Made by a program: the position numbers and the translations under genes. From the sequence record PV654517: a stretch of 64,000 bases of DNA, one strand, 5' to 3'. Origin of the DNA: Escherichia phage vB_ECOLIGBLB0003. A model generated the notes under the pieces. The model ran no database searches. It worked only from the letters and a program-made list of their open reading frames with translations, and was not told where the DNA came from. Below, piece by piece: positions 8,182-8,757 of the stretch. The first letter of the stretch is position 1, and each line of letters starts with the position of its first letter.

Positions 8182-8395
8182 ATTTGACTTCCTCACCAGT
8201 ACATAAATCGTATTCAACTAAACGAATAGGTTCATGAATGCCATATCCCTGAACAGAAATTTCTGTCGTAGGATAAATTCCACTAATATCACCCATGTTC
8301 CATGCTTCGTTAAATTGTTGTTCGCCTGAATTACTAAACCATTCGGCGAAAGCATTTAGCACATCTTCAGAACCTTCAATAATTATCTTTTCCAT
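8174..8395 (-). CDS. hypothetical protein
   Basis: 73-aa ORF with ATG. Confidence 0.45.
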   Translation of the reverse strand: MEKIIIEGSEDVLNAFAEWFSNSGEQQFNEAWNMGDISGIYPTTEISVQGYGIHEPIRLVEYDLCTGEEVKYD

Positions 8396-8757
8396 TACAA
8401 ACTCTCGGTAAAGGTACGAGCGATAACGTCGCGCTGCTGTTCCGGAGTCAGAGAGTTAAAGCGAACTGCATAACCGGATACACGGATGGTCAGCTGCGGA
8501 TATTTTTCCGGATGCTTAACTGCATCTTCCAGAGTTTCACGACGCAGAACGTTAACGTTCAGGTGTTGACCACCTTCAATTTTAACTGTAGGCTGTGGCT
8601 CAATTTCAATTTCACGGGCATGCAAACCATAGAAAATTTCTGGGTCTACAAAAGAGTCCTCTTTAAAGGTTTTAGAAACGATAATTCGTGCTTGAATACC
8701 ATCTTCAAAATAAATAGTGCCTTTGTGTGTGCCTTCAAGAATTTGATATGCTTTCAT
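8395..8757 (-). CDS. grcA: autonomous glycyl-radical cofactor (GrcA/YfiD-like)
   Basis: 120 aa; C-terminal ~60 aa [59 protein letters not shown] matches the E. coli GrcA glycyl-radical domain as I recall it (RVSGY motif); the 3' half of the gene is visibly GC-richer than its surroundings. Confidence 0.75.

Follow-up and report, generated by a model that had tools for sequence, protein, structure and literature searches.

The closest described relatives of the gene analysed here are Escherichia coli GrcA (YfiD) and the phage T4 protein Y06I. Both are 'spare part' proteins, which receive a radical from the pyruvate formate-lyase (PFL) activase and restore activity to PFL cleaved by O2 (Wagner et al. 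2001, BBRC 285:456, as related in PMC8683613). YfiD has a disordered part, residues 1–60, that is important for binding and activation, whereas its residues 61–127 duplicate PFL residues 693–759 (PMC8683613). Y06I, or Vs.6, is one of only two functionally validated GrcA proteins, and vs.6 was present in 6/6 T4-like genomes in an earlier comparative study (PMC1524935). We analysed this gene in a window of 64,000 nt from Escherichia phage vB_ECOLIGBLB0003 (sequence record PV654517), the window being the whole stretch of DNA under analysis, numbered from its first letter (Table 1).

Identity and context of the vs.6 gene

The open reading frame codes for a 120-aa protein identical at 119/120 residues to T4 Vs.6/Y06I (NP_049730), to which RefSeq gives the name 'autonomous glycyl radical cofactor GrcA'; the sole difference is Arg73 here and His in T4. 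The protein contained the Gly_radical domain (Pfam PF01228, 66.8 bits against a cut-off of 22.2), matched the E. coli GrcA structure (PDB 6OWR, E = 8.6e-42), and aligned over its full length with PHROG 1209, the T4 vs.6 orthologue group (E = 1.2e-62, positions 1–120 of 121). Its similarity to the C-terminus of PflB (residues ~693–759) reached ~80% identity across 63 residues. The RVxG[FWY] motif required of GrcA/YfiD is present as RVSGYAV, and the product is a small stand-alone protein of ~14 kDa without the PFL catalytic barrel, encoded between neighbour genes on either side. The best NCBIfam matches were the GrcA and PFL models; the score against the GrcA equivalog TIGR04365 (IPR011140) was 153.3 bits, below the 170-bit cut-off that E. 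coli GrcA passes with 233.9, because the N-terminal half has diverged. A full-length PFL, with its ~750-aa ten-stranded barrel and catalytic Cys pair, was rejected as an identity since only the last ~63 PFL residues align, and the labels 'pyruvate formate-lyase' or 'acetyltransferase' on many phage homologue records are over-annotations.

The minus-strand gene order in this region is vs, vs.1, regB, vs.3-like, vs.4, vs.5, vs.6, vs.7, vs.8, an internal-protein-like ORF, denV and e, and this order, with its vs.7–vs.6–vs.5 synteny in the regB–denV region, agrees with the annotated T4 and RB69 maps. Window positions 6000–12000 were 96% identical to many Escherichia/Shigella T4-like phages. The window is a segment of a T4-type (Tequatrovirus) genome, whose gene at this locus is orthologous to T4 vs.6, already known and with nothing peculiar to this window. 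The overlap between the vs.6 stop and the vs.5 start would permit translational coupling, which is possible. A promoter and terminator scan around vs.6 returned counts equal to the shuffled expectation.

Two further elements were observed upstream of vs.8. A 152-nt non-coding spacer (9634–9785, minus strand, GC ~0.48) between vs.8 and the internal-protein-like ORF is kept in >1,000 phage records, and the unrelated phage FV3 shares its core of ~44 nt at 95% identity; the spacer gave neither a significant RNA fold prediction (z = 0.4) nor an Rfam match. The adjoining 157-aa ORF (9786–10259, minus strand), between denV and vs.8, matches Pfam DUF7412 over its full length and starts with MKTYQEFITEA, which we take to resemble the capsid-targeting leader of T4 internal proteins. 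The genes ipII/ipIII, located between denV and e in T4, are missing here, and this absence together with the 157-aa ORF suggests a variable internal-protein locus.

Table 1. Features of the vs.6 locus, in window coordinates
Feature	Position	Strand	Basis
vs.6/grcA-like gene, 120 aa	8395..8757	-	ORF list, T4 identity, Pfam, PDB 6OWR, PHROG 1209
Phage-type AT-rich 5' part (codons 1–59 and start of codon 60)	8580..8757	-	No E. coli DNA match; composition; profile homology
3' block of apparent host origin (gene nt 179–363), structured glycyl-radical domain	8395..8579	-	97.8% identity to grcA; composition
Exact-identity run to E. coli grcA, 172 nt	8408..8579	-	Pairwise alignment, longest-run calculation
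Last four sense codons T-E-S-L, phage-type synonymous: ACC GAG AGT TTG (E. coli ACT GAA AGC CTG)	8398..8409	-	
Predicted glycyl radical site, Gly95 codon (RVSGYAV); counterpart of GrcA Gly102 and PflB Gly734	8473..8475	-	Translation, alignment; PMC8683613
Putative Shine-Dalgarno GAGG, 5 nt 5' of ATG, overlapping the vs.7 TGA stop	8763..8766	-	Sequence inspection; inferred only
TAATG, vs.6 stop overlapping vs.5 start	8393..8397	-	Sequence and ORF coordinates; likewise annotated in T4, RB69 and other phages

The host-identical 3' block and its origin

A preliminary description of this DNA had noted that the C-terminal ~60 residues resemble E. coli GrcA and that the N-terminal half is different. 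The alignment with PDB 6OWR bore out the first point, as residues 61–120 of the phage protein are identical to GrcA residues 68–127. Far from being a distant similarity, the likeness extends to the DNA: gene nt 179–363 (window 8395–8579) were 97.8% identical to chromosomal grcA in 5426/5426 complete E. coli genomes. The second point also held at the DNA level, where the 5' half of vs.6 had no match in the 5,426 E. coli genomes; yet the N-terminal half proved homologous, though diverged, to its GrcA counterpart (see below). In the pairwise alignment of vs.6 with E. coli grcA, similarity fell sharply to background 5' of TTGAAGGTGG. The only four mismatches in the block (window 8407, 8404, 8401 and 8400) were all synonymous and lay in the final four codons. 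The host-identical tract spans GrcA residues ~67–127, which is nearly the structured domain and includes the radical glycine.

Megablast of window positions 1–25000 against E. coli genomes found no host-like DNA beyond the grcA tract and a weaker pflB echo at 80%. Given the DNA identity of 97.8% against 80%, the donor of the block was grcA and not pflB. The base-by-base comparison covered 16 phage genes and a small selection of hosts. For the block interior (168 nt), identity was 99.4% with E. coli and 98.2% with another Escherichia species, and no other host compared exceeded 91% (Citrobacter 91%, Salmonella ~84%). A neighbour-joining tree placed all Tequatrovirus and Mosigvirus blocks within Escherichia with 97% bootstrap support. 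Approximately 505 phage records matched E. coli grcA at ≥95%.

The base composition changes at the same place. The 5' part has a GC content of 0.354, near the window mean of 0.356, and the block one of 0.486 (block z = 2.7, top 1.07% of 185-nt windows); GC3 rose from 0.24 in the 5' part to 0.44 in the block, compared with 0.43 in E. coli grcA. The 3' half had earlier been described as GC-richer than its surroundings, and it is a real outlier, though not a unique one: GC is just as high in the tRNA cluster, gp23 and gp12, and for this reason composition alone was rejected as proof of host origin. The eight-tRNA-gene cluster (15068–16447, minus strand) accounts for the GC-rich stretch at 14.6–16.3 kb, and the other outliers are the major capsid gene gp23 (49768–51333, plus strand) and the short tail fibre gene gp12 (34765–36315, plus strand).

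Selection on the protein, on codon usage or on mRNA features could in principle have produced the block identity by convergence, with no transfer of DNA, as grcA is strongly codon-biased in the host and its C-terminus is near-invariant across Enterobacterales. However, hosts with an identical 62-aa C-terminus differ from E. coli at 7.5–12% of block nucleotides: block identity to E. coli was 92.5% in Citrobacter amalonaticus and 88.2% in Serratia, which share this C-terminus, and 84.4% in Salmonella. With only 88–92.5% DNA identity in hosts of the same C-terminus, protein constraint is insufficient for a 172/172 match, the chance of which under 92.5% identity is, by simple arithmetic, 0.925^172, or ~1e-6. 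Krischvirus and T5-like E. coli phages also encode similar proteins, with only 72–75% DNA identity. Convergence would not yield a 172/172 match specific to E. coli, and we consider it to have practically no chance of being correct.

The E. coli gene is evenly similar to its enterobacterial orthologues over the whole length and occupies a fixed chromosomal locus (ung–grcA–eamB). Together with the nesting of the phage blocks within Escherichia and their host-type codon composition, these observations indicate that the transfer ran from host to phage. Two database records of grcA stood out in the searches. An enterobacterial-type grcA lies on the 275-kb record 'Klebsiella sp. WOUb02 plasmid unnamed4', which is probably a chromid or a mis-assembly. 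A grcA whose protein is 91% identical to that of E. coli comes from an assembly that bears the name of a Gram-positive bacterium, Vagococcus sp. WN89Y, and probably reflects contamination or mislabelling.

We then compared the phage N-terminal half with bacterial GrcA N-halves by profile alignment. The results demonstrated homology of this half to the GrcA N-terminal region (hhalign probability 96.2%, E = 2.6e-9, 26% identity, 62 columns). The same characteristic N-half is common to the T4-like, T5-like and jumbo phage homologues, and homologues of the whole protein were found in Mosigvirus, Jiaodavirus, Karamvirus, Slopekvirus, Pseudotevenvirus, Krischvirus and Aeromonas phages (Straboviridae), in T5-like Demerecviridae and in a Yersinia jumbo phage. 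Outside Tequatrovirus, Mosigvirus and Jiaodavirus, the 3' half was 72–85% identical to any sampled host gene. In addition, the final codons GAG AGT xTA/G are common to distant phage genera and absent from E. coli, which implies that homologous phage sequence once lay on both sides of the tract. Because the N-halves are homologous and full-length homologues exist whose 3' halves are not host-identical, the ancestral state appears to have been a complete, diverged, phage-borne grcA, with the host-identical tract a later replacement of the homologous segment.

These findings bear on a different origin, in which a single captured 3' fragment of host grcA was fused illegitimately to an unrelated phage ORF, producing a true domain chimera. 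The sharp 5' boundary, the lack of detectable DNA similarity upstream and the strong GC/GC3 step at the junction would all be expected from such a fusion. It is nevertheless very unlikely, as the N-half is homologous to that of GrcA, distant phage groups carry full-length homologues with the same N-half and a diverged C-half, and the last four codons retain phage-type synonymous codons found in other genera. The proposal in the preliminary description of a recent capture or recombination yielding a chimera was accordingly upheld with a refinement: the identity, the 97% tree nesting and the GC3 strongly support recombination with the host, whereas the notion of a new chimera gives way to replacement within a full-length phage grcA that existed before.

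Timing, spread and the Klebsiella counterpart

When the window phage is set against Mosigvirus RB69, the 5' half shows synonymous differences at 14/53 conserved codons, and the block at 3/60 (Fisher p = 0.003). The sliding comparison with RB69 revealed an island of 97–100% identity exactly over 8426–8575, with flanks of 85–92% in the 5' half and 67–83% in vs.5. Interiors with no difference from E. coli occurred in both genera (RPN187, fPS-90 and the window). Considering the synonymous contrast, the identity island and the undiverged interiors together, the block is apparently younger than the Tequatrovirus/Mosigvirus split.

A single transfer into the common ancestor of Tequatrovirus and Mosigvirus, followed by vertical descent only, would require the low divergence of the block to result from constraint. 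The 5' boundary is indeed identical in both genera, and strong constraint acts on the encoded protein. Against this scenario stand the excess of synonymous differences in the 5' half over the block, the presence in both genera of interiors 100% identical to E. coli, the variation of the 3' edges between phages, and an independent Klebsiella-type block at the same position in Jiaodavirus, and we judge it unlikely. The 3' edge is a patchwork of phage and host codons that differs among the window, T4, fPS-90, RB69 and RPN187, which fits several events or heteroduplex repair. The block of the Escherichia phages was either acquired more than once or spread by phage–phage recombination; for these phages only, one transfer followed by such a spread is possible.

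Two Mosigvirus phages, LH01 and O157tp13, carry private differences in the block. Alternative E. coli donor alleles were rejected as their source, the best E. coli match being 96.2–96.8%. With one possible exception, the private substitutions of the two phages were absent from E. coli genomes, indicating that these changes probably arose in the phage. Between O157tp13 and LH01, synonymous codon differences amounted to 8/61 in the block and 1/59 in the 5' half (p = 0.03), the block being the more diverged part. The four changes private to LH01 are all towards A/T, as might result if host-type codons are being ameliorated in a phage rich in AT.

The Jiaodavirus phages KP17 and KP185 presented the same architecture with a different host signature. 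Their 5' half was phage-type, 75% identical to the window, with a GC3 of 0.19–0.27, and their 3' block had a GC3 of 0.57–0.62. With K. variicola grcA, their interiors shared 95.8% and 95.2% of positions, and identity to E. coli over the full or near-full block was 83–89%. The block has the same 5' edge as in the Escherichia phages, a 77-nt exact run to K. variicola, and phage-type terminal codons. The Klebsiella-type residues LLDAVEH were found in both phages, and the K. pneumoniae-complex residues SLTSEQQ also in KP185. With grcA from a Klebsiella metagenome-assembled genome, 15–17 phages matched at 90–95%. In the tree, Jiaodavirus grouped with K. variicola in 77% of bootstrap replicates, and the phage blocks formed a single clade in 0.3%. 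The resemblance of the two Jiaodavirus blocks to K. variicola and this grouping suggest a second host conversion that took place independently, with a donor from the K. pneumoniae complex; the identity in this case is 95–96% and not ~100%, and the clade support is only 77%.

Host tracking did not extend to every lineage. No block at ≥95% was found between Salmonella grcA and any phage, Cronobacter phage leB was only 82% identical to C. sakazakii grcA (no recent exchange), and Slopekvirus, Pseudotevenvirus, Karamvirus, Krischvirus and T5-like phages had no host-identical block among the hosts sampled. Without a Salmonella block and with these other lineages lacking one, host tracking is not general. 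Taken together, vs.6 is a host–phage mosaic in which a segment of host-level identity and composition lies between phage-type flanks and matches the host genus in separate lineages. Whether its radical-domain block has been repeatedly re-synchronised with the grcA of the current host genus, through no fewer than two independent events, one for Escherichia and one for Klebsiella, that share their edges, is a proposition to which we give an even chance. Selection for an exact fit to host PFL and PflA may favour such re-synchronisation, since Slopekvirus and Pseudotevenvirus also bear host-type residues (LLDAVEH or LEDAVKH).

If repeated re-synchronisation is true, vs.6 would naturally report on gene conversion still taking place from host to phage among the T-even phages, and the block would mark the recent host genus of a phage. 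As a possible host-genus marker it points to an Escherichia history for the record 'Pseudomonas phage vB_PSGBLB0006' (PV654520.1). This record is 100% identical to window positions 6000–12000, gives P. aeruginosa ATCC 9027 as its host and only 'Viruses' as its taxonomy. Its content is that of a Tequatrovirus with an E. coli-identical grcA block, and at 142 kb it falls ~25 kb below typical relatives; its host label or its completeness looks doubtful.

Proposed function, route of exchange and relation to known systems

A spare-part role in repairing host PFL, which had been suggested from the sequence at the outset, is the published function of T4 Y06I, a protein one residue different from the one encoded here (Wagner et al. 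2001, to the extent related in PMC8683613). By the mechanism described in the literature for YfiD and Y06I, O2 would cut host PFL at the Gly734 radical and the phage protein would bind the damaged enzyme, aided by its N-terminal half. Its C-terminal domain would then stand in for the C-terminus that PFL has lost, and PflA, the activase of the host, would place the radical on the glycine of RVSGYAV (Gly95), making PFL active again. The phage would presumably benefit from a continued supply of acetyl-CoA, ATP and formate in microaerobic or anaerobic infected cells. Formate is the reductant of class III (anaerobic) ribonucleotide reductase.

The true target could instead be another glycyl radical enzyme, such as the phage anaerobic ribonucleotide reductase NrdD. 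A role in nucleotide metabolism was speculated from the Pfam match by Nolan et al. 2006 (PMC1524935), and vs.6 adjoins nrdG in some Aeromonas phages. The C-domain, however, has the same sequence as that of GrcA and shares ~80% of its residues with the C-terminus of PflB, GrcA and PFL models lead the NCBIfam matches, and Y06I reconstitutes cleaved PFL (Wagner et al. 2001, again as related in PMC8683613); we regard NrdD as a highly unlikely target. An indirect link to NrdD through PFL-supplied formate is possible and would still amount to PFL repair. In the Aeromonas phages PX29 and phiWae14, the vs.6 homologue lies directly beside nrdG, the anaerobic ribonucleotide reductase activase gene, and a functional link of the spare part to phage radical-enzyme genes is possible.

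With regard to the route, as the phage genome replicates, fragments of degraded host DNA would pair with its ~186-nt stretch of homology and be copied in. The 5' limit of the tract would correspond to the end of phage–host homology, and the 3' end would fray within the last four codons. T4 is able to recombine with homologous plasmid inserts, which makes the copying-in of host fragments plausible. The route that the alignments suggest as most likely is exchange with host DNA in the infected cell, by homologous recombination or gene conversion. The 5' junction lies in ~10–12 nt of shared sequence, and as this is short for classical homologous exchange, an illegitimate or microhomology-mediated event at this junction is possible. 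Overall, we are confident in the explanation that vs.6 encodes a spare part for PFL and descends from an ancestral phage grcA whose ~185-nt radical-domain segment was overwritten by host grcA, and independently so in Jiaodavirus.

T-even phages degrade host DNA, yet one domain-sized tract copies the host, in a region otherwise free of E. coli-like DNA over 25 kb. The block therefore offers a tractable case for the rate and homology needs of gene conversion from host to lytic phage. The gene and its function were already known, and recurrent host-specific gene conversion is the modest addition proposed here, with no claim to priority; we found no description of a vs.6/grcA DNA mosaic or of its host specificity in the searchable literature, the coverage of which leaves out key older work.

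Compared with known systems, the gene is closest to T4 vs.6, with which it shares its length, its position between vs.7 and vs.5, and the host-identical 3' block. The two differ at the host-identical 3' edge, where T4 retains ACT GAA and the window has ACC GAG. Like E. coli GrcA (YfiD), the product is a small stand-alone protein with the same C-terminal 60 residues and a homologous N-half that probably has the same binding role; unlike it, the phage protein has an N-half 7 residues shorter with only ~26% identity, and the 5' half of the gene has phage composition. The C-terminal glycyl radical domain of PflB, the piece that the spare part replaces, has the same fold segment and motif, whereas the phage protein lacks the catalytic barrel. 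Mosaics of cyanophage psbA/psbD are reportedly products of host–phage intragenic recombination, in accounts attributed to Zeidner and colleagues in 2005 and Sullivan and colleagues in 2006. The cyanophage genes resemble vs.6 as phage copies of a host metabolic gene with segments of host-type sequence and composition matched to the host group, but the gene, the host and the lineage of phage are others, and in vs.6 the tract corresponds to one structural domain, has the same edges in two apparently independent events, and occurs in hmC-containing T-even phages.
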